Shown piece by piece: positions 1,802 through 59,081 of a stretch of 64,000 nt of DNA (positions are counted from its first letter, which is position 1; every line of letters begins with the position of its first letter). A program made the translations under genes and the position numbers. The stretch is from Mustelus asterias. Lineage: Eukaryota. The DNA lies in the NCBI RefSeq assembly GCF_964213995.1, contig NC_135817.1:30070001-30134000 (forward strand). Reading direction: 5' to 3'. The notes beneath the pieces are model-generated. The model did no database searches and was not told the DNA's origin. It worked only from the letters and a program-made list of their open reading frames with translations.

Positions 1802-3681
1802 TGACTAAAAGTTTGTTAGATTTAAAGGAAAGTCTTGAAGGAGATGAGAGAGGCAGAGGGATGCTGAGATTTAGGGAGGGAATCCAGAACTCAAGTCCAA
1901 GGCAGCTGTGGTAGGGTGAACAAGATTGAAGAGTCCTGCCCGATATCTTCTGAATGTTTAATGAAAAGAAATAGGAGCTCATCCAAAACTCTATGTTGGA
2001 CAAGCAAATTGACAACACAGAGGCAGCAGAAGGATTTAGAGGTTCTCGAGAGATTTAATTAAGTGCCTTTGTAATTTTGGTAAGTACCTTGGAAAGGAGA
2101 GAAGCGCAGAAAAAGATGATACATAAGCAGAAGCTCAGAACAGGTCACAGTACTGACTTGTCACTTGGGTACATGATAAGCACTGTGAAGAGTGGGAAAT
2201 TAAATAATTCAAATAGGGTAGAGGAAGCAAATAACAATGAAGATAGAGAAATTAAAGGTCAATATTAAAGCTTTCACAACTGAGAGAAGACTTGATAGAA
2301 GAACATCCATACTGTTTCCAGCTAGAACCTCATGTCACCGTATTTGGACGAGCCAGATTTCCACTACATACAATAAGGACACTACTACATTAACATCTCC
2401 GTGGCTCTGAAAGCTCTGATCTGTACTATCCTGAAGCAATTCATTCATTGGAACTCAATCCTTCTGCATCTCTGAGCCAGAACTACAGAAGACAGGGTTT
2501 AAACTGTGACCTGTAATTTAGACTCAAATTATCAGATGCTGGGATTCCACTTTTACTTTGAATTTGATAAGATCTGGTATTACTATTGCTAATATAGTGG
2601 GCTCAATTTTACAGCTGGATTTGGGACCTCGATGTTCCCATGTGCCAGGAATTGGAATGGATCAGCAATTTTCCTGGAGGCCATTTTCTAATTAGCTGCT
2701 TTGGGGCTTGGTGTCCAATTAAGGATGGCAGGCATGATGGAGAGGCTGCAAAACCAATTTAGAAAGTTGGAAGCTCTAAAACATCTTCCCCATTAACCCA
2801 GGTGGAAGGAACTTTGCTACAAAGCTAAAAATGAAGTTGTACTGTCAACCATTAGAGAGCACAACTTGCATTTGTTGCAGTTGATTTAATCCCATGGTCC
2901 TTAATTTATAGACATGCCTCAGTGCTACGTTATTTTAGACTTGGCCAGATGGGCCACAAGACTGGGAGATCCAGGATCAACAATTTATGAACCTAAACAC
3001 AGATGGTACTGCAATGTTTTTTTCCCTGTTTGACTATAAACCACAGTAATTACACATAGCTCTTATTTTATAACTCAACTTTCCACTTATTTCAAACACT
3101 CTGAGCTCCAATAGCAGCCTGTTCCTTCCCACCTCTGTTGCCCCTTTCGTTCCAACTCATTTTACTTGTACTCTATATTCACCAGTTTTCACAATTGGCA
3201 CCATGAAAGCTGCAAGAAGGAAGAGGATAATTGTTGCAGAAACAAACCGATGTGAAAATAAAGGAAGTTACGGAGAAGTGGGAGAAGAACATGGCACTCT
3301 AACTGTTGCAGATGTGAAGAAGAACTTTATCCACACACTGAGTGTTCATGATCACGAAGGTGATGGAAATAGAGATTATAACTGATTTCAAAAGAAAGTT
3401 GGACGGACGCTTGAAGGAAATAAACCAGTAGAGCTTCGGGGATAGCGCTGGGGACTAGGTCTGATTGAATTGCCCTTTGGAGGGCAGACATGAAGTTGAT
3501 GTGCCGAATGCCCCCCTTCAATGCTGCAGTGGCTCTATGTTATGCTGGGATCAGAGTCCATTGCAGGCAAAGCATGAACAGCTGCAAAACTGTCTTGAAC
3601 ATGTTTCAGAACTATTGATCGAATGCTTTAACAACAGTGGTAAACAGAATTGCCGTTTATTTATTATATTTATTCACCTAC

Positions 3682-4473
3682 CTCAGAGATTTGATTCAGT
3701 ATTATTTTCCTTTCATTGTTATTGCAGCAATGAAAAACACTGTAGAGCATATCAACCAAAAAACTTAAGTCAGTTCTAGATTCTTGCACCCAGATTAGGA
3801 GTTTGTGAATCAGAAACTGTATAGCAGGGTTACTTGCTATCGCTTTCACTTCATTATTTGTTTCAAGGAAAGATACAGCATTCGCTGGGTTGTCATTTTC
3901 CAGCAAAATAGTAAATAGCTTCCTTGATGGAAATGAGCTAACCAGTGTGGACAAGAATGTAAGATGCATTTCAGAGTTCTGTTCATTAATAAAGGTCATG
4001 CTCAGTTTGGCAAGTTCACAGACAAGGCCTTCCAAAGGCACTGTTCTGGCAGGATGGTTGTCCCCCAAATATTCAGATTCCAATGCATTCTTAGTTCCGA
4101 AAGTTAATTCTGTCAGATGATTGGTAACATTGTTATCACGATTCTCAGTTTCTTCTTCGTCAATAAATCTGATTTTTCCTTTCTTTTTCACTGATTGTTT
4201 CGTAGTGCTGTCAGGCTTTCTCAAGAACTTGAGCAAAGATGAGACTCCTTCCAACAAATTTTTGTCAGCTTCTGCACTGCCTACCCGAGACAGGCAGGCT
4301 TGAGAAAGACCAACCCAAAAATCAGATAACAGTCTTCTGTATGCATCAGCCCACTCTTCTATATCTGAATTATCAGTTCGTTTTTCCCACGAGGCAAGAG
4401 TGTCTGCGAGTTGGGAGAAAGTGCTGGCTTGCAGTTTGGGATACTTCCAAGCAGAATGTATAAGAGGTAGTAG
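3682..4473 (-). CDS. LTN1: Listerin exon 10 (large HEAT-region exon)
   Basis: ttcag|LLPLIHSAWKYPKLQ...KIILNQISE|gtaggt; 792 nt open frame containing ORF 3670..4257. Confidence 0.93.
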
Positions 4474-4740
4474 CTGAAGGAAATAAGAAGTTCAACTTTA
4501 TTCTTTCTGAAATTACACAATGTAAAACATTTTTTCTTTATTCTATATACTCTCAGCCTGTATCTGTTCATGTTCTCCTTTCCATATGTCACATACATAA
4601 CTTCAACTGTTTAAAATATCTGACAAGCAAGCTATAGCTTGGCTATTTGCCAAGCTGTTGGCAATCACAAACCCGATATTCAGGCACTCTAATGTGTAAA
4701 ATGTTAGCTATTAACAAATAAAAAGACTAAAAATAATGTT

Positions 4741-4837
4741 ACAAAAACAAAAATGCTGGAAAATCTCAGCAGGTCTGACAGCATCTGTGGAGAGAGAACA
4801 GAACTAATGTTTCAAATCTGAATGACTCTTCATCAGA
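4741..4837 (-). mobile_element. Second-family PLE-terminus-like repeat with a hammerhead-like core
   Basis: Minus strand CTGATGA-AGAGTCATTCAGATTT-GAAACATT...gatgctgtcagacctgctgagattttccagc; similar to 25481-25580. Confidence 0.68.
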
Positions 4838-17504: not shown

Positions 17505-19050
17505 CTGTGAAACAGAAAAATTACAGCTACGTCATGCATCAAAAATAACTAAAGTACAATATCACAAACACATCAACAAAAGATTTATTGTTGGAATACA
17601 GCAAGTTTTAAAAACTAAGCTGAACAATTACATATTTATTTTACTTTCCTGCCAATAAATTTTAATTGTTTTACAACTACTAAAATGCACATACACTTAA
17701 AAACTGTGCTTAAAAGACAAGTCACTCTCCTTTGCATTTTTATTCTGAAATATCATATCCTGCTGACACTAATGACAGAATACATTTAGAGGAATTACAT
17801 AGACAGATGAATTGAATGCATCCCAATTTAGTGGCATTTCTATACATGTTAACTAATGGCTTTCATATTGCTTGGCTCAATGATTTGTATCGAATAACTG
17901 TATAATAATGTAAAGATGTAAGAAGAATTTATTTCCATTTCCCATTTGAAAGCAGTATCAATAAGATTTCATTGGCAGAGGTCACTGCTGCGCAACTCAT
18001 AGGACACAAGTTTGCTTTTGTAGTTCCTCACATAGCAAGTTCAGATCTCTACCATGCACCAAATGGAAAGGAGACATTTTCTCAAGACAAAAAGGAAACA
18101 CAACTGGTTTAAGTTATCAATTAACAAGTAGTCATAAGCTACTAGTATAGACCTAAGCGAACAATTATATTCATAGTTAAAAACAGAAGAGATAGAAAAC
18201 TTAATTTGTCTCTTTGTCTAAGCATTCATTTTTGACTAATTTAGTTACACCCCTGAAGTACATTGGGATGTTTATGTTACAGGTGTTAAAACAAATGCAC
18301 GTTGTTAATGACTTGTCAATCATTGTTCAGCTGTAATATATAATTTTGCCAATAGATGGCACTGGAATCAAATGTTTTAATGATAATTAAAAGTGAAACT
18401 GGAAAAGGGAAGGAGTTTGGCATAAAAACAATCTTAAAATATGTGTACAATAGAAACATGGAATGAATCAGTAGATCTGAAAATAGTTAAGATTTCTACA
18501 CAGGACATTGGGTCGGTACTGAGGAATAGTACATTTTGTAATTTTTGCCAATATGTCAGCATCAATTGCTTTCAGCTCAGCTACAGCACACTTGGATGCA
18601 GGGAAAAATTCCTGCTGCCATGAGGCTATGCCATCAGCCAAAACCACATTAGAATACTCTCAATTGCATTATAGTGATATTTTTAATTTTCCCTTTATGG
18701 ATTCCCAAAGATTCATAACGTAGAGCCAATTTGTGACCTCACACCCACAAGGACTTCAGTTGTCAATACGCAAACATATTTTGCAGAGAGCTTACCAGCC
18801 AATAAAGCAAAGAGACTTTTAAGCCATTAGGGTGTGCTGGATTGAAACACAGATGTCAGAGGCTACATCAATGGACAATCCAGCGCCAACTCCCCAACTT
18901 CCCTCTCTCTCCATACACCCGCCACCCCATGTTCTGGATCAATTTTGTGATCTGACATTTTGGGATGGGTTAAAGAGATAAATGCCCAGCATTTAATAGT
19001 TCGGTCAGTTATGCTACATTAATGGGCTTATTTTTACAATATGCGACAAG

Positions 19051-19388
19051 GGGCGGTACGGTAGCACAGTGGTTAGCACTGCTGCTTCACAGCTCCAGGG
19101 TCCTGGGTTCGATTCCCGGCTCGGGTCACTGTCTGTGTGGAGTTTGCACATTCTCCTCGTGTCTGCGTGGGTTTCCTCCGGGTGCTCCGGTTTCCTCCCA
19201 CAGTCCAAAGATGTGCGGGTTAGGTTGATTGGCCAGGTTAAAAATTGCCCCTTAGAGTCCTGAGATGCGTAGGTTAGAGGGATTAGCAAGTAAATATGTG
19301 GGGATAGGGCCTGGGTGGGATTGTGGTCGGTGCAGACTCGATGGGCCAAATGGCCTCCTTCCGCACTGTAGGGATTCTATGATCTATG
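19051..19388 (+). mobile_element. HE1/V-SINE, full length, young
   Basis: Intact A/B boxes, V-domain and tail; nearly identical to 53076-53416. Confidence 0.92.
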
Positions 19389-24530: not shown

Positions 24531-24534
24531 TGAA

Positions 24535-25427
24535 CATGATGTGGAGATGCCGGCGTTGGACTGGGGTAAACACAGTAAGAAGTCTCACAACACCAGGTTA
24601 AAGTCCAGCAGGTTTATTTGGTAGCAAAAGCCACTAGCTTTCGGAGTGCTTGCTGCTTTCATCAGGTGAGTGGGAGTTCTGTTCACAAACAGGGCACATA
24701 GACACAAACTCAATTTACAAAATAATGGTTGGAATGCGAGTCTTTACAGATAATCAAATCTCAAAGGTACAGACAATGTGAGTGGAGAGTGCGTTAAGCA
24801 CAGGTTAAAGAGATGTGTATTATCTCCGATGTGTATTGCCTCGGATGTCCCGAGGCATGGTACATTGGGGAGACCATGCAGACGCTACGACAGCGAATGA
24901 ATGAACACCGCTCGACAATCACCAGGCAAGAGCGTTCTCTTCCTGTTGGGGAACATTTCAGCGGTCACGGGCATTCGGCCTCTGATCTTCGGGTAAGCGC
25001 TCTCCAAGGTGGCCTTCACGACACACGACAGCGCAGAGTCGCTGAGCAGAGACTGATAGCCAAGTTCCGCACACATGAGGACAGCCTCAACCGGGATCTT
25101 GGTTTCATGTCACACTATCTGTAACCCCTATGACTTGCCTGGGCTTGCAAAATCTCACTAACTGTTCTGTCAAGAGACAATACACATCTCTTTAACCTGT
25201 GCTTAACGCTCTCTCCACTCACATTGTCTGTACCTTTGAGACTTGATTATCTGTAAAGACTCGCATTCCAACCATTATTTTGTAAATTGAGTTTGTGTCT
25301 TTATATGCCCTGTTTGTGAACAGAACTCCCACTCACCTGACGAAGGGGCAGCACTCCGAAAGCTAGTGGATTTTGCTACCAAATAAACCTGTTGGACTTT
25401 AACCTGGTGTTGTGAGACTTCTTATTA
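24535..25427. mobile_element. Penelope-like insertion with inverted terminal repeats and a GIY-YIG C-terminal fragment
   Basis: Left arm ~24575-24827 is the reverse complement of ~25175-25425; middle encodes CPEAWYIGETMQTLRQRMNEH...LNRDLGFMSHYL*; 11-bp TSD aacatgctgaa at 24524-24534 and 25428-25438. Confidence 0.92.
25334..25369 (+). ncRNA. Minimal hammerhead ribozyme in PLE terminus
   Basis: CAC-CTGACGA-A-GGGGC(AGC)ACTCC-GAAAGCTA-GTG. Confidence 0.72.
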
Positions 25428-25480: not shown

Positions 25481-25580
25481 GGTCTTTGACAAAGGGACAT
25501 CTGGATTCGAAACGTCAGTTCTTTTCTCTCCTTACAGTTGCTGCCAGACCTGCTGAGATTTTTCAGTGTTTTCTCGTTTG
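25481..25580 (+). mobile_element. Short repeat of a second PLE-terminus-like family with a degenerate hammerhead
   Basis: TTGACAA-AGGGACATCTGGATTC-GAAACGTC...gctgccagacctgctgagattttt; 14-bp TSD gtgccaccacaaag at 25467-25480 and 25581-25594. Confidence 0.7.
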
Positions 25581-26430
25581 GTGCCACCACAAAGCCAAGT
25601 TTAAAATCCAATGCCAAGATTGAACTTGATAAAACCACACCCAAAAATCAATGTTAGCGGGTAGTCTAGCAATTGATCTTAATTGGTTTGGCATATAAAG
25701 AGGGTGGGAGGGAATGCCATCTTTGACCGGCAATTCATAAATACATTCAATCATATCAATCAGCAAGTTTGATCCCTGCCTGCAGCAGCTTGGCAATAGT
25801 GTGATTTCACCCCAAGTCACAAAGTTGTTCAATAGGTTCAAGGCCCGTTCCAGATGCTTTTGAGCGTATAATCGGAGCTCCAGTAATGAGTAAATGTATT
25901 GTTAAAGATTATATATTTTGAAGGAGAAGTTAAAGCGAAATCCTGGTTGTCTGGTTAGGTACTTGGGAACAGATATAGGTCATTCAGCCCCTCGAGCCTG
26001 CTGTGCTATTCCATTAGCTCAAAGCTGATCTGTACCTCCACTCCATTTGTTCCATATCTTCTGACAGCTTTTACAAAAAATCGATCAATTTTAGCCTTTG
26101 TCAATTTACACAACATTTTTTAGGGACCGGATTCTAAATATCCATAATACCTTGTGAAAAAGTGCCTCGTATTTCACTCGGAACTGGCATAGTTCCAATG
26201 TTAACAACATGTCCATGCCCCATTGTTTTATTTATTCTTTCATGGAATGTGGGCGTCACTGGCTAGGTCAACATTTGTTGTCCAACGCTAATTGCCCTCG
26301 AGAAGGTAGTGGTGAGCTTCCTTCTTGAACTGCTGCAGTCCATGTGGTGCGGGTACACCCACATTGCTGTCAGGAAGTGAGTTCCAGGATTTTGATCCAG
26401 CAAGAGTGAAGGAAAGGCAATATAGTTTCC

Positions 26431-27470
26431 TGAGGAACGCCACTTGTCACAGCCCTCCATTCAGAAATGCACCCTTCCACTACTACCCTTTGTCTTCTTT
26501 GACCGAGCCAGTTTTGTATCCACCTTGCCAGCTCACCTCTGATCCCATGCGACTTCACCTTCTGCACCAGTCTGCCATGAGGGATCTTGTCAAAGGCCTT
26601 ACTGAAGTCCATGTAGACAACATCCACTGCCCTACCCTCATCAATCATCTTCGTCACTTCCTGGAAAAACTCGATCAAATTAGTGAGACACGACCTCCCC
26701 TTCAGAAAACCATGCTGCCTCTCATTAATACATCCACTTATTTCCAAGTGGGAATAAATCCTGTCTCGAAGAATCCTCTCCAATAATTTCCCTACCACTG
26801 ATATAAGGCTCACCGGCCTGTAATTACTTGGACTATTCTTGCTACCCTTCTTAAACAAAGGAACAACATTGGCTATTCTCCAATCCTCTGGGACCTCCCC
26901 TGTAGCCAGTGAGGATACAAAGATTTCTCTCAAGACCCCAACAATTTCCTTCCTTGTCTCTCTCTCAGTATTCTGGGGTATATCCCATCAGGCCCTGGGG
27001 ACTTGTCTACCTTAATGTTTCTCAAGAACTCCAATACCACCTCCTTTTTGATCTCAACATGACTCAAACTATCTACACACCCTTTCCCAGACTCATCATC
27101 CACCAAGTCCTTCTCTTTGATGAATACTGACGCAAAGTACTCATTTAATATCTCGCCCATTTCCTCTGGCTCCATGCATAGATTCCCTCCCTTGTCCTTG
27201 AGTGGGCCAACCCTCTCCCTGGCTACCCTCTTGCTCTTTATATGTATAAAAAGCCTTGGGATTTTCCTTAATCCTGCTGGCCAATGCTTTTTCATGACCC
27301 CTTTTAGCCCTCCTTACTCCTTGCTTAAGTTTCTTTCTACTTTCCTTGTATTCCACACTTGCTTCGTGTGTTCCCAACCTCCTAGCTTTGACAAATGCTT
27401 CCTTTTCTCTTTGAGTAGGCTCACAATATTTCTCGTTATCCAAGGTTCCCAAAACTTGCCATACTTATCC
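26431..27470 (-). mobile_element. CR1 LINE ORF2 internal fragment (RT N-terminal half)
   Basis: VPEDWRIANVVPLFKKG..NYRPVSL..QHGFLKGRSCLTNL..YMDFSKAFDK..VTSGVPQ. Confidence 0.94.
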
Positions 27471-31608: not shown

Positions 31609-31731
31609 ATGTGGAGATGCCGGCGTTGGACTGGGGTAAGCACAGTAAGAAGTCTCACAACACCAGGTTAAAGTCCAACAGGTTTATTTGGTAGCAAATA
31701 CCATAAGCTTTCGGAGCAATGCTCCTTCGTC
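31609..31731 (-). mobile_element. PLE mini-copy (hammerhead core to tail)
   Basis: Minus strand TGACGAAGGAGCATTGCTCCGAAAGCTT...GCCGGCATCTCCACAT; TSD actt(t/a)attcaaa at 31597-31608 and 31732-31743. Confidence 0.87.
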
Positions 31732-31849
31732 ACTTAATTCAAAGGCAAGGGAGTTCTGGGCATTATTTGTCCTTCACCAACAACACTGAGACATGTTAAT
31801 GGTGATTATTGCATCGTGGTGCACAGATGGACTGTGGAGTTTACTGCAG

Positions 31850-36748: not shown

Positions 36749-37231
<483 letters not shown>

Positions 37232-46669: not shown

Positions 46670-46852
46670 ATCTTTTGCATCCACTTGAGAGGGAGGATGG
46701 AAGCTCTGTTTAATATCTCATCCAAAAGATCTCCGTAGACTCCCTTTGCACAATTCATGTCAGCCTCAATTGTGTGCTCAAGATGTGGAGTTGGACTTGA
46801 AACTGCAATCTTCTGACTCAGAGGCAACAATATCACCACTGAGCCGCAGCTA
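46670..46852 (-). mobile_element. Deu-domain SINE 5' part
   Basis: ttggacttgaaactgcaatcttctgactcagaggcaac...ccactgagcc (reversed tRNA-like head). Confidence 0.62.
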
Positions 46853-47201
46853 ATGTCATATTATCAGTAACCCCCACAGCTTGCCTCCTAGACTTGCAGG
46901 CTGTCCTGTCTGGAGACAATACACATCTCTTTAACCTGTGCTTAATGCTCCCTCCACCCACATTGTCTGTATCTTTAAGATCTGGCTGGCTGTAGGGATT
47001 CGCATTCTAATCAGCATTCTGTAACTTGATGTTGTGTCTCTGTGCACTGTTTGAGAGCACATTTCCACTCCATCTGACGAAGGAGCAGCGCTCCGAAAGC
47101 TAATGGTATTTGCTACCAAATCAACCTATTGGACTTTAACGTGGTGTTGTTAAAACTCTTACTGTGTTCACCCCAGTCCAACGCCGGCATCTCCACACCG
47201 T
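46853..47201 (+). mobile_element. Penelope-like 3' terminal fragment (diverged subfamily) with intact hammerhead core and tail
   Basis: Aligns by eye with 25107-25425 plus tail; agctaa duplicated at 46848-46853 and 47202-47207. Confidence 0.88.
47070..47106 (+). ncRNA. Minimal type I hammerhead ribozyme (PLE-associated)
   Basis: CCAT-CTGACGA-A-GGAGC(AGC)GCTCC-GAAAGCTA-ATGG: core, 5-bp stem II, palindromic AGCT stem III, 4-bp stem I. Confidence 0.8.
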
Positions 47202-47565
47202 AGCTAACACACAGAGCACAGGGTGTTGGGAGTTTCGAATGAATTTGTGAGGATACTGGGGAAAAATTATTTCCCCTAGGGGATGATAAATATAGTGGGG
47301 TTTTGAAGATAATATTGCATATAAGGGAGATGGGAAGTTGGTTTAGATGCGTGCTGATTATTCAGATGTAATCAAGGTTTGTTTATTCCTGTAGATCCTA
47401 TAGTCATTTTGTTCGTAATGCATGTTTGTGAAGTTAGTTTTAACACCATTGCATGTTGTTTTTATTTACTATCTTCAGGCGCACAATTTTCCAGATGCTT
47501 GGTCTTGAAGTTGCCTTTCTTTCTTTGTGGGCACTATAGTTGAAGAATACTGAGAGACCATTGAA

Positions 47566-47626
47566 ATGGGAAAGAAAAAGGAAAGACAAAATTCTCCACA
47601 GGTCGCTGAGACCTCTGACAGCTGTG
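47566..47626 (+). CDS. USP16: Ubiquitin C-terminal hydrolase 16, first coding exon
   Basis: ATG, MGKKKERQNSPQVAETSDSC + G|gtaaga; 61 nt; phase 1 fits next exon. Confidence 0.88.
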
Positions 47627-49264: not shown

Positions 49265-50780
49265 CAAGGGGCGAAATAGCTGGGGTCTTAACAGATATCT
49301 TCACGTCCTCTTTGACCACAGGTGAAGTCCCAGAGGACTGGAGAATAGCCAATGTTGTTCTCTTGTTTAAGAAAGCAGGCAGGGATAATCCAGGAAATTA
49401 TAGGTCAATGAGCCTCACATCTGTGGTGGGAAAGCTTTTGGAGATGATACTGAAGGACAGGATATATGCACATTTGGAAGAAAATGGACTTGTTAGTGAC
49501 GAGCAGCATGGTTTTGTATGGGAAGGTCATGTCTCACTAACTTGATTGAGTTTTTTTGAAGAGGTGACAAAGATAATTGAGGGATAGGTGGTGGATGTAG
49601 TTTATTTGACAAGGTCCCACATGACAGACTGGTACAAAAGCTAGAATCACATGGGATTTGGGGCGGGCTGGCTAGATGATACAGACCGAGCTTGGTTATA
49701 GAAGACAAAGAGTAGTGATAGAAGGGAACTTTTCATAATGGAGATCTGTAGCTAGTGGTATTCCACAGAGATCAGTGCTGGGACCTCTGTTGTTTGTAGT
49801 GTATATAAAGGGTGGAGTTGCTGATAGTGCCGGGGATACACAGAGAAATTCATCAGGCGAATGAGGCTGTGGGAGTTCTTCCACAAACCCCAAGAGGCCA
49901 ACAGCGAACACAATGAGACAGCCAATGAACCGGAAGAGCCGACTGTGTTTACCCCAGTCCAACGCCAGCACCTCCACATCATGAGTGCCGGGGATTGTCA
50001 GAGGATACAACAGGATATAGATAGATTGGAGACTTGGGCACAGAAATGACAAATGGGGTTTAATCCGGGCAAATGCGAGGTGAAACATTTTGAAGGATCA
50101 AATTTAGGTGTGAATTATACTATAAATGACAGAACCTTTATGAACATTAACACACAAAGATCTGGGTGTGCAGGTCTACAGTTCCCTAAAAGTGGCAACA
50201 CAGGTGGCCAAGGTGATTAGGAAGGCATATGGCATGCTTGATTTCATCAGCCAGGGCATTGAGTACAAGAGTTGGGAAATCATGTTGCAGCTATATAAAA
50301 CCTTGGTTAGGCTGCATTTGGAGTATTGCGTACAATTCTGGTCACCACATTACCAGAAGGACGTGGAAGCTTTGGAGAGAGTGCAAAGAAGGTTCACTCG
50401 GATGTTGCCTGGTCTCGACAGTCTTTGAGAGGCATAGACAGTGTGGATAGTCAGGCTTTTTCTAAGGATGGAAGTGTCATTTACAAGGGAGTACAGGTTC
50501 AAGGTGAGAGGGGGAAAGTACAAGGGAGATGTGCTGGGGAAGTTTTTCACGCAGACATTGGTGGGTGTCTGGAACGCGCTGTCTGAGGAGATGGTGGAAG
50601 CAGACACATTAGCAACATTTAAGAGATATCTGGATGGGTATGTGAAAAGGGAGGGAATAGAGAGATACAGACCGATTAAGGGCAGGAGATTTTTTTTAGT
50701 TTAGTTAAGGCACCGTGATCAGCACAGGCTTGGAGGGCGGAAGGGCCTGTTCCTGTGCTGTACTTTTCTTTGTTTTGTTC
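49265..50780 (+). mobile_element. CR1 LINE 3' portion, decayed
   Basis: GEVPEDWRIANV, LEYCVQFWSPHYQKDVEALERVQRRFTRMLPG, tail cctgttcctgtgctgtacttttctttg. Confidence 0.92.
49838..49983 (+). mobile_element. Chimeric PLE insert (ORF-like fragment + 42-nt tail) inside a CR1 fragment
   Basis: 12-bp TSD agtgccggggat at 49826-49837 and 49984-49995; ends in the PLE tail actgtgtttaccccagtccaacgccagcacctccacatcatg. Confidence 0.85.
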
Positions 50781-56182: not shown

Positions 56183-56269
56183 CTCAGCTGAGGAAGGAGC
56201 AATGCTCCAAAAGCGCATGATTCCAAATAAACCTGTTGGACTTTAACCTGGTGTTGTGAGAATTCTTAC
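56183..56269 (+). mobile_element. PLE mini-copy (degenerate hammerhead, tailless)
   Basis: CTGAGGAAGGAGCAATGCTCCAAAAGC...ctgttggactttaacctggtgttgtgagaattcttac; 10-bp TSD tgtgtttgga at 56173-56182 and 56270-56279. Confidence 0.82.
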
Positions 56270-56569
56270 TGTGTTTGGAAAAAACAGTTGTTCAATGTAG
56301 TACTCTAACTTCAAGGAACAGATGAAGTGTTCAAAAATCTCAAATGGTTAATAGTGCCTGAATTATTCAATTGCGCGATGCTCTTGTCATCCTCGAAGGC
56401 ATTCTCCATATAACTTCAACTAAAATAATTGTTAGTCAAATTATGTGCTTGAAAATTATAATTCAGTGAAACCTTTGGCCTGCTGCATGTTTCTGTTGTT
56501 CCCTTTGTGTAGTATAAAATGATTTGTTCAGCATTATACAAATGTCCTGGCTTGCTTTGTATTTTACAG

Positions 56570-56896: not shown

Positions 56897-58665
56897 TATG
56901 ATGTGGAGATGCTGGCGTTAGACTGGGGTAAACACAGTGCGAAGTCTCACAACACCAGGTTAAAGTCCAACAGGTTTATTTGGTAGCAAAAGCCACTAGC
57001 TTTCGGAGCGCTGCTCCTTCATCAGATGAGTGGGAGTTCCGTTCACAAACAGGGCATATAAAGACACGAGCTCAATTTACAAAATAATGGTTGGAATGCG
57101 AGTTTTTACAGGTAATCAAGTCTTAAAGGTACAAACAATGTGAGTGGAGAGAGGGCTAAGCACAGGTTAAAGAGATGTGTACTGTCTCCAGCCAGGACAG
57201 TTAGTGAGATTTTGCAAGCCCAGGCAAGTTATGGGGGTTACAGATAGTGTGACATGAACCCAAGATCCCCGTTGAGGCCGTCCTCGTGTGTGGAACTTGG
57301 CTATCAGTCTCTGCTCAGCGACTCTGCGTTGTCGTGTGTCGTGAAGGCTGCCTTGGAGAACGCTTACCCGAAGATCAGAGGCCGAATGCCCGTGACCGCT
57401 GAAATGTTCCCCAACAGGAAGAGAACACTTTTGCCTGGTGATTGTCGAGCGGTGTTCATTCATCCGTTGTTGTAGCGTCTGCATGGTCTCCCCAATGTAC
57501 CGTGCCTCGAGACATCCTTTCCTGCAGCGTATCAGGTAGACAACGTTGGCCGAGTTGCAAGTGTATGTACCATGTACTTGGTGGATGGTGTTCTCACGTG
57601 AGATGATGGCATCCGTGTCGATGATCCGGCACGTCTTGCAGAGGTTGCTGTGGCAGGGTTGTGTGGTGTCGTGGTCACTGTTCTGAAGGCTGGGTAGTTT
57701 GCTGCGGACAATGGTCTGTTTGAGGTTGTGCGGTTGTTTGAAGACAAGAAATGGGGGTTTGGGGATGGCCTTGGTGCGATGTTCGTCTTCATCAATGACG
57801 TCTTGAAGGCTCCGGAGAAGATGTCGTAGTTTCTCCGCTCCGGGTAAGTACTGGACGACGAAGGGTACTCTGTCCGCCGTGTCCCGTGTTTGTCTTCTGA
57901 GGAGGTTGGTGCGGTTTTTCGCTGTGGGGCATCGGAACTGTCATTCGATGAGTCAAGCGCCATATCCTGTTCTTATGAGGGCATCTTTCAGCATATGGAG
58001 GCGTCTGTTGCGATCTTCCTCATCCGAGCACATCCTGTGTATACGGAAGGCTTGTCCGTAGGGGATGGCTTCTTTAACATGTTTAGGGTGGAAGCTGGAG
58101 AAGTGGAGCATCGTGAGGTTATCCGTGGGCTTGTGGTACAGTGAAGTGCTGAGGTGACCGTCCTTGATGGAGATGCGTGTGTCCAAGAATGCAACCGATT
58201 CCGGAGAGTAGTCCATAGTGAGTCTGATGGTGGGATGGAACTTGTTGATGTCATCATATAGATGTTTCAGTGATTGTTCACCATGAGTCCAAAGGAAGAA
58301 AATGTCATCGATGTATCTAGTGTATAGCATCGGTTGAAGGTCCTGTGCGGTGTAGAGGTCTTGTTCGAACCTGTGCATGAAGATGTTGGCATATTGAGGT
58401 GCGAATTTGGTCCCCATGGCTGTTCCGTGTGTCTGGATGAAGAACTGGTTGTTGAAGGTGAAGACATTGTGGTCCAGGATGAAGCGGATGAGTTGTAAAA
58501 TTGCATCTGGAGCTTGGCAGTTCTGAGGCAGTTGCAGCAATGCCATCGTCGTGGGGGATGCTGGTGTAGAGTGCCGAGACATCCATTGTGACGTGGAGTG
58601 CTCCTGGTTCAACTGCTCCATGTGTGCTGAGTTTCTGTAGGAAGTCCGTAGTGTCGCAACAAAAG
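56897..58665 (-). mobile_element. 5'-truncated Penelope-like retroelement (Poseidon-type): RT + GIY-YIG endonuclease + terminal repeat with hammerhead and tail; frameshifted
   Basis: RT motifs TMDVSALYTSIPH, GTAMGTKFAPQYANIFM, YTRYIDDIFFLW; endonuclease-region (YIGE)TMQTLQQRMNEH; 8-bp TSD ctaataaa at 56889-56896 and 58666-58673. Confidence 0.93.
56993..57029 (-). ncRNA. Minimal hammerhead ribozyme in PLE terminus
   Basis: Minus strand CAT-CTGATGA-A-GGAGC(AGC)GCTCC-GAAAGCTA-GTGG. Confidence 0.8.
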
Positions 58666-59081
58666 CTAATAAACGCACAGGGCAGGATCTTAGGGTTAAC
58701 TAACATCACTGAAGTCAGATGTTTGAGCTTCAGTGTTATCTGTCACTAAATTGTTTTCCATCAACCAGTGAACCATCAAGGTACTAGATAAGAAAGTTTG
58801 TGGTATGATATTGTAAGCAGCAATGAAGTGTTGATTATGGTTTTAGGAAAAATATTGCTAATTAGAGGAGTGGGTGCAGAGATAGTAGTGGTTGTGAGGT
58901 GGGATTGAGCGAGAGGGAAGGGTGGAAGCAGCTGTATAAGAATACTTTTTTAAAAGTACTGCTGCAAGAATTTGTACAAGATTAAAAGGTAGGAGGGATT
59001 TTGGAAAGAATGGTTGTGATGGACGGAGTGTTTGCATTGATTTTTTTTTGTTTTGATTAACTCGTCATTATTTTGATACAG

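Follow-up and report, generated by a model that had tools for sequence, protein, structure and literature searches.

The window analysed here, a 64-kb stretch of Mustelus asterias DNA, very probably carries an intact minimal type I hammerhead ribozyme within the truncated end of a Neptune-type Penelope-like element (PLE), whose predicted cut after A47102 would likely be weak and would need a second copy or a protein of the element; the solitary copy itself is likely a passive by-product. This kind of hammerhead has been known since 2014; the motif extends it to a further vertebrate lineage, in which copies are very numerous. The positions at which copies of the family start suggest that uncut RNA was likely the source of most of them, and cut RNA that of a few percent.

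Results

The motif at 47070–47106 resembles the minimal hammerhead of PLEs

The motif (47070–47106, + strand, subfamily B) was assigned from its sequence and the published consensus. It consists of helix I (CCAT at 47070–47073 paired with ATGG at 47103–47106), C3 to A9 (CTGACGA, 47074–47080), an extra A (47081), stem II (GGAGC and GCTCC closed by AGC, 47082–47094), G12 to A14 (GAA, 47095–47097), the palindromic stem III AGCT (47098–47101) and A17 (47102), with the predicted cut between 47102 and 47103. In the hammerhead core numbering, in which N7 and H17 are the tolerant positions, the core C3UGANGA9 ... G12AAA15.1 ... U16.1 H17 is present as in the minimal type I hammerhead of PLEs. The additional base that separates positions 9 and 10.1 is A47081, G10.1-C11.1 was G-C in 15 of 15 distinct aligned rows, and the palindrome 15.1–16.1, which has no loop 3, is AGCU in subfamilies A–E and ACGU in family F. 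Judged by sequence, no feature published for the minimal hammerhead of metazoan PLEs is lacking from the motif. A strict hammerhead pattern gave two exact matches in the window (47074, +, and 57025, −), compared with a mean of 0.00 in 100 shuffled sequences.

A preliminary description of this DNA had proposed a minimal type I hammerhead in a PLE terminal repeat, and core, context and published consensus agree on it; the extra A after A9 and the palindromic stem III that it reported were found again, and its predicted cleavage after A47102 fits the hammerhead numbering of that residue as A17. In a covariance-model search with Rfam, no family matched in the whole window at the gathering score or in 46800–47300 at E ≤ 10, so that the motif is not a canonical type I hammerhead where this is defined by a match to the Rfam hammerhead models. 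Canonical type I hammerheads also have an extended helix I with an internal loop and a tertiary contact between loops 1 and 2.

A possible outer helix I stem (5′ strand at 47056–47062, pairing with 47108–47114) appeared in the minimum free energy (MFE) fold. It has one compensated pair and is possible in subfamilies A, B, D and E and absent in C and F, with majority-sequence mismatches in several subfamilies. The family was also carried by assembled contigs from four runs of four organisms; among contigs at least 80% alike, the interval 47047–47101 was free of listed variants, the first ones being A>T at 47102 and A>G at 47103.

The copy has the same orientation as a ubiquitin-protease gene in which the Cys-box exon matched USP16 best (E 5e-5), and lies about 370 bp upstream of a likely first coding exon (ATG at 47566). 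It is probably located in an intron of this USP16-like gene. Host genes of the window comprise the USP16-like protease (47566, 56597 and 59668, +), an RWD-domain gene (36749–37231, −) and a long exon (3673–4491, −) that we take to be LTN1-like, the gene order presumably being that of vertebrate synteny. Within the window, the nearest intact same-strand partner of the copy is at least 21.7 kb away, so that the solitary motif is probably inert.

The motif sits at the end of a Neptune-type PLE

The motif is part of a 344-bp, 5′-truncated PLE copy (46854–47197, +), which comprises the last six codons of the open reading frame (ORF), the pseudo-LTR (pLTR) with the ribozyme, and a long tail. It is flanked by a 10-bp target-site duplication, the left copy of which (46844–46853, +) has one mismatch to the right copy (47198–47207, +). 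Non-LTR retrozymes, which are head-to-tail tandems of short non-coding units, were ruled out by this solo insertion between target duplications. The copy is 96–98% identical to its 40 other best genomic matches and 78% identical to the end (57255–56902) of a copy encoding reverse transcriptase (RT) and endonuclease (EN).

The latter is a broken, 5′-truncated, 1.8-kb PLE of subfamily A (56898–58667, −) with RT, a CX4CxxC linker, GIY-YIG and an intact-core hammerhead at 57025–56998. Both domains exceeded their Pfam cut-offs (RVT_1, 32.2 bits against 29.6; GIY-YIG, 23.7 against 22.6), and the architecture is a single ORF with RT followed by GIY-YIG. The subfamily of the 47070 copy has endonuclease-bearing copies of its own, its sisters being attached to GIY-YIG sequence. 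The linker, CHSNLCKTC, fits CX2-5CxxC, which marks Neptune or Nematis (PMC8557442, available text), and the PLEs found in vertebrates are Neptune and Poseidon only according to the accessible part of a preprint (bioRxiv 10.64898/2026.07.22.740005). By linker and elimination, we infer that the element is a Neptune-type EN+ PLE. Other traits of the Neptune clade are present as well, namely a partial tandem of pLTR-ORF-pLTR with cores about 3.06 kb apart (genomic locus L031), inverted arms, and an optional tail reflected in two 3′ end clusters.

The preliminary description had listed eight related copies in the window. A related copy was indeed found at all eight places, but only three (47074, 57025 (−) and 25338) retain the whole catalytic core; in the copy at 25338, one stem II position is mismatched. 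This copy belongs to the long arm (24843–25424, +), which holds the end of the endonuclease and the hammerhead, of a head-to-head pair (24533–25424); the short arm (24533–24827, −) corresponds to the copy near 24.6 kb (−), in which G10.1 is lost and stem II damaged. A short head-to-head pair (1573–1799) joins two decayed subfamily C copies just upstream of the core, one of them (1713, −) with A6G, G12A and a broken palindrome and the other (1719, +) cut off at C3. Likewise cut off at C3 is the copy at 31733 (−), a solo subfamily B copy (31609–31732, −) that starts at U4 and lacks C3 and helix I. The copy at 56188 is a decayed solo of subfamily C (56185–56276, +; G12A, U16.1G) that starts 5 nt upstream of C3 and has a 9-bp duplication.

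Several other repeats were observed. At 49838–49984 (+), the tail comes immediately after a stretch from within the PLE ORF, whereas the element has the two in the opposite order; a template jump or a circular template might be the cause. In the long PLE copy of L031, a 59-bp inverted internal duplication (2961–3019 and 4114–4172) interrupts the RT region. Fragments of LINE-type reverse transcriptase unrelated to the PLE occur in the window (26373–26987, −) and in L031 (7687–9387, −), and a repeat family of 300–340 bp with 70–90% identity, probably a SINE, occurs at 19049–19383 and in about ten other places.

Copy number, subfamilies and constraint on the fold

A 28-letter core pattern had 52,093 exact matches in the genome, with none for the reversed control, and a 29-letter marker just downstream of the core had 171,007. 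In 324 kb chosen independently of the element (13 of 26 10-kb stretches taken from the start of one contig, with the window included), 30 copies were found, 13 of them with an intact core, which scales to roughly 340,000 copies and 150,000 intact cores genome-wide.

Seven subfamilies (A, A2, B, C, C2, D and E) accommodated 340 of 429 copies; this classing, the pair scoring, the identities and the duplications rest on a copy search that could pass over weaker copies. Across the subfamilies N7 was C, U or A and H17 was A, U or C, with 3 of the 340 copies carrying G at H17, and the remaining core letters were fixed as the majority. Pairs 2.1-1.1 (U-A in B, C-G in the other subfamilies), 2.4-1.4 (C-G, U-G or U-A, unpaired in C2 and E) and 10.4-11.4 (A-U in D) of helices I and II changed on both sides, in few independent events. 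The first of these is the helix I switch noticed earlier, a real subfamily difference. The stem II loop variation reported with it stood in part: ATT was found again in other copies, but AGT and AAT look like CpG decay. Among the aligned rows, 98% of cells paired, with a score of 0.244 compared with at most 0.104 for slid controls; three pairs changed on both sides were also reached by 42 of 500 shuffles. This scoring used 16 of 23 rows, hand-picked intact copies of which 15 were distinct, and left out E and F because MAFFT misaligned them.

The CpG at positions 7–8 offered a further comparison: its tolerated product U7 was present in 10,160 copies and its core-breaking product A8 in 1,466, indicating that U7 lineages multiplied and A8 lineages did not, although the number of events is small since master lineages are few. 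Outside the ribozyme, the 145 nt upstream were 76–94% identical between subfamilies (B vs C, 76%) and the 47 nt downstream about 90%, so that local conservation alone is not specific for a ribozyme.

Subfamily E made up 37 of the 98 classed copies of the marker-selected sample, more than any other. It is distinguished by two additional bases behind the cut and a 5-nt variable loop II, and includes a GGGGC/GCCUC variant in which G-C replaces A-U at 10.3-11.3 (L157:508–575, L035:861–928). Family F retains the core with a different stem II (GGGUC/GACUC) and the palindrome ACGU, and its pattern had 3,719 matches against 41 for the control. Its elements are about 125 bp long; both window copies (4741–4837, −, and 25484–25588, +) are decayed, and others occur at L154–L183. 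A link to an ORF was looked for in five long copies of F and none was found. At L175:1150–1530, an intronless ribosomal-protein reading frame, which we assume to be RPL37A-like, stands head-to-head with a family F copy and is possibly a host mRNA retroposed by a PLE.

The active fold is predicted to be weak

The MFE fold of the 47070 copy includes helix I and stem II, and its stability was unremarkable against shuffled sequences (z −0.46 and −1.58). Cleavage as a dimer, which the preliminary description had proposed, is a mode known from the literature; in nearest-neighbour calculations the catalytic dimer (−19.1 kcal/mol) was weaker than two monomers (2 × −10.9) and than a dimer with swapped stem II (−29.1). 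For the active helix I register, the probability was 0.5 in the 47070 copy and did not exceed 0.07 when A, A2, D, E and C2 were folded in long context. These unfavourable dimer energies and the weak helix I register agree with the low activity and the protein dependence described in the available text of PMC4209133 and PMC11167929, respectively.

A non-catalytic helix I register slipped four bases upstream folded best in A, A2 and C2 (L003:1975–2040, L035:1481–1546), and C2 changes both strands of this slipped register together (GCAC/GUGC vs CCAC/GUGG). A folding switch between read-through and start-site transcripts was considered and dropped, a clear gain of the active register being seen in D, C2 and F only.

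Copy ends fall at recurrent positions

The 3′ ends formed two clusters about 35 nt apart, which correspond to the known tail. Head-to-head pairs combined one long and one short end in 63 of 74 cases and had a duplication of 10–18 bp in 53 of 74, and solo copies had a duplication of at least 9 bp in 22 of 85 cases compared with 2 of 85 controls.

The 5′ ends were counted relative to C3 in copies reaching it, with a wider copy search that gave the same picture as the earlier one. At −3 to −10, 54 of 92 subfamily C copies started (solo, 14/33), compared with 10 of 60 in A/D (solo, 1/32), 6 of 52 in E (solo, 0/24) and 5 of 90 in B (solo, 3/43). A further 22 of 90 B copies started at −11 to −18, almost all of them inverted arms; with 1 of 43 there, solo B copies showed no pile-up, and neither an upstream-start nor a cut-site signal was clear in them. 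In family F, 23 of 31 copies started within 6 nt of C3, as judged from three long references. Peaks at −153 and −157 were artefacts of truncated subfamily E references and were discarded.

Long C and F copies have a TATA-like box at −38 to −34. The C starts lie about 30 nt below it, the usual spacing from a TATA box to a transcription start, and upstream of the core, from which we infer a start site near −4 to −8 and an uncut template. Transcripts of PLEs start in the upstream pLTR, as stated in the available text of PMC6765202. A set of 156 copies taken without regard to the ribozyme had 7 starts no more than 1 nt from the cut, 21 between −10 and −3, 8 between −18 and −11 and 17 between −50 and −19; another 25 fell within the ribozyme, 10 were downstream and 68 lay further upstream.

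Starts at the cut were analysed with a pattern excluding the core, which matched 1,484 of 131,984 copies. Half of the first 100 rows were dropped (22 with another 3′ strand, 21 point mutants with a core, 2 local duplications and 5 other tails). The remaining 50, all E-type, included 11 that start at position 1.1 and 28 at the four positions upstream, against a filter-expected share of 0.086 (P = 3e-4); the step was also seen in solos (4 at the cut and 10 upstream, P = 0.027). The two positions downstream were about equally frequent (11 rows, P = 0.19), which makes this a step and not a spike. By extrapolation the cut-site class amounts to some 1,070 copies, or close to 2% of E; the test was post hoc, included some non-independent arms and may owe part of its signal to GT microhomology.

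Discussion

Most likely, the ribozyme is weak and dimer- or protein-dependent and is kept in active lineages. The pseudo-LTR would contain a promoter that, in subfamily C if not more widely, places the transcription start upstream of C3 by a few bases. Reverse transcription would usually copy uncut RNA and may begin internally, from either of two sites in the tail that lie about 60 and 95 nt beyond the cut. A minor part of the templates would be cut at the hammerhead site beforehand, and selection on the core would act in the multiplying master lineages, not in inserted copies. It is quite conceivable, and close to an even call, that the hundreds of thousands of truncated copies are a fossil map of germ-line RNA ends, in which one class starts 4–8 nt upstream of the core (uncut and probably capped) and a smaller class exactly at the scissile bond. 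If so, the copies would provide in vivo evidence of cleavage by a minimal PLE hammerhead, and of cut RNA still being open to reverse transcription and insertion. As the shares of the classes differ between subfamilies, the helix I variants would then form a natural series for the role of the ribozyme in the PLE cycle.

The copy ends may instead reflect DNA-level artefacts such as microhomology joins, palindrome fold-back or RT pauses, which we regard as possible though somewhat doubtful, and which would touch the copy-end reading only, the motif still being a PLE hammerhead. The pile-up in B is nearly confined to head-to-head arms and often falls at a GATATC palindrome, A and E have TATA-like boxes and no solo pile-up, and the E cut-site class coincides with a GT dinucleotide and does not exceed the two downstream positions. 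Such artefacts are harder to reconcile with the upstream starts of solo C copies and of F copies, which mostly have unrelated flanks and in several cases target duplications, or with the persistence of the E step in solos.

Two further accounts concern the ribozyme itself. That the motif is a catalytic relic, kept as an RNA or DNA signal (a promoter element, or a protein-binding or packaging structure) and practically never cutting, would suit the weak active fold and the well-conserved non-ribozyme sequence downstream. In the available text of PMC11167929, ribozyme mutants had no effect on PLE insertion in vitro and no Anolis reads started at the cut, and in that of PMC8557442 Naiad PLEs thrive without a hammerhead. 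We nevertheless consider it very unlikely: the variation falls on N7 and H17, which is explained by catalysis only, family F retains the core with different helices, and the starts of E copies step up at the predicted bond. Slightly less probable still is the cleave-and-circularise scheme of PMC4209133 (as given in its available text), in which the ribozymes of the two pseudo-LTRs form an efficiently cleaving dimer and the element is normally copied from unit-length or circular RNA. The palindromic stem III is invariant or compensated, partial tandems such as L031 place two motifs on one transcript, the fragment at 49838–49984 has ORF-internal sequence and tail in a permuted arrangement, and a religated circle would also give whole-core copies. 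However, in the ribozyme-unselected copies starts at the cut (7 of 156) stand against 21 at −10 to −3, and circles do not account for the abrupt 5′ limit that C and F copies show just upstream of C3. We retain the weak, rarely cutting hammerhead of active lineages as the preferred reading.

The in vitro rates published so far for PLE hammerheads are, in the sources available, low. What these hammerheads do could be tested by counting in the shark family, whose seven subfamilies, naturally varying helices and more than 170,000 copies allow RNA start and cut sites to be read from insertion junctions, and about 150,000 intact cores, some of them sense in introns, would allow a genome-wide test of whether solo motifs do harm to host transcripts.

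Comparison with known systems

A literature search found no description of this PLE family, although the preprint supplement or Lunse et al. may list one from cartilaginous fish, and no PLE copy-end map. No cartilaginous fish is named in the available Table S1 and 56-motif alignment of Cervera and De la Pena (2014, PMC4209133), and in the accessible parts of the sources no in vivo cleavage by PLE hammerheads was found reported. In vitro, low activity is described in the available text of PMC4209133, and 8 of 9 tested Xenopus dimers did not cut according to that of bioRxiv 10.64898/2026.07.22.740005.

The very numerous type I hammerheads recall non-LTR retrozymes, with 126,247 in axolotl, and one chondrichthyan genome has both non-LTR retrozymes and PLEs (PMC7229834; bioRxiv 10.64898/2026.07.22.740005; available text of both). 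Retrozymes, as described there, are head-to-tail tandems of 170–400 nt without an ORF, whereas the copies here are dispersed, truncated ends of an ORF-bearing PLE. An expansion of Penelope-like elements is described for the whale shark in the available part of 10.1101/443036.

The Poseidon element of Anolis carolinensis (PAc), as covered by the available text of PMC11167929, likewise has two 3′ end classes about 35 nt apart, a hammerhead near the pLTR-ORF junction and uncut RNA as its main template; its ribozyme needs protein, and its tail reflects two RT start sites. It differs in that its ATG lies inside the ribozyme, compared with about 95 nt past the cut here, and in that no PAc reads began at the cut, as a minority of copies do here. 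To the EN+ PLEs of the Neptune clade, as set out in the available text of PMC8557442, the shark element is alike in its RT, CX2-5CxxC linker and C-terminal GIY-YIG, in partial tandems and inverted 5′-truncated arms, and in an optional tail of 30–40 bp, an assignment made here by motif and elimination, Nematis having the same linker.

The closest likeness of the motif is to the minimal hammerheads of metazoan PLE pseudo-LTRs, whose features in the available text of PMC4209133 are CUGANGA followed by H, G10.1-C11.1, GAAA, a palindromic 15.2-16.2 and UH, together with a short helix I and an occurrence both as scattered solo copies and as pairs on opposite strands. Compared with these, stem II in the Mustelus family has 5 bp and a triloop, and exact copies number at least 52,093, against about 4,000 in coelacanth and 9,000 in Xenopus. 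With the painted turtle row of the same source, the Mustelus family has in common AGCU, U17 and a CCAAAUAAA tract just downstream.
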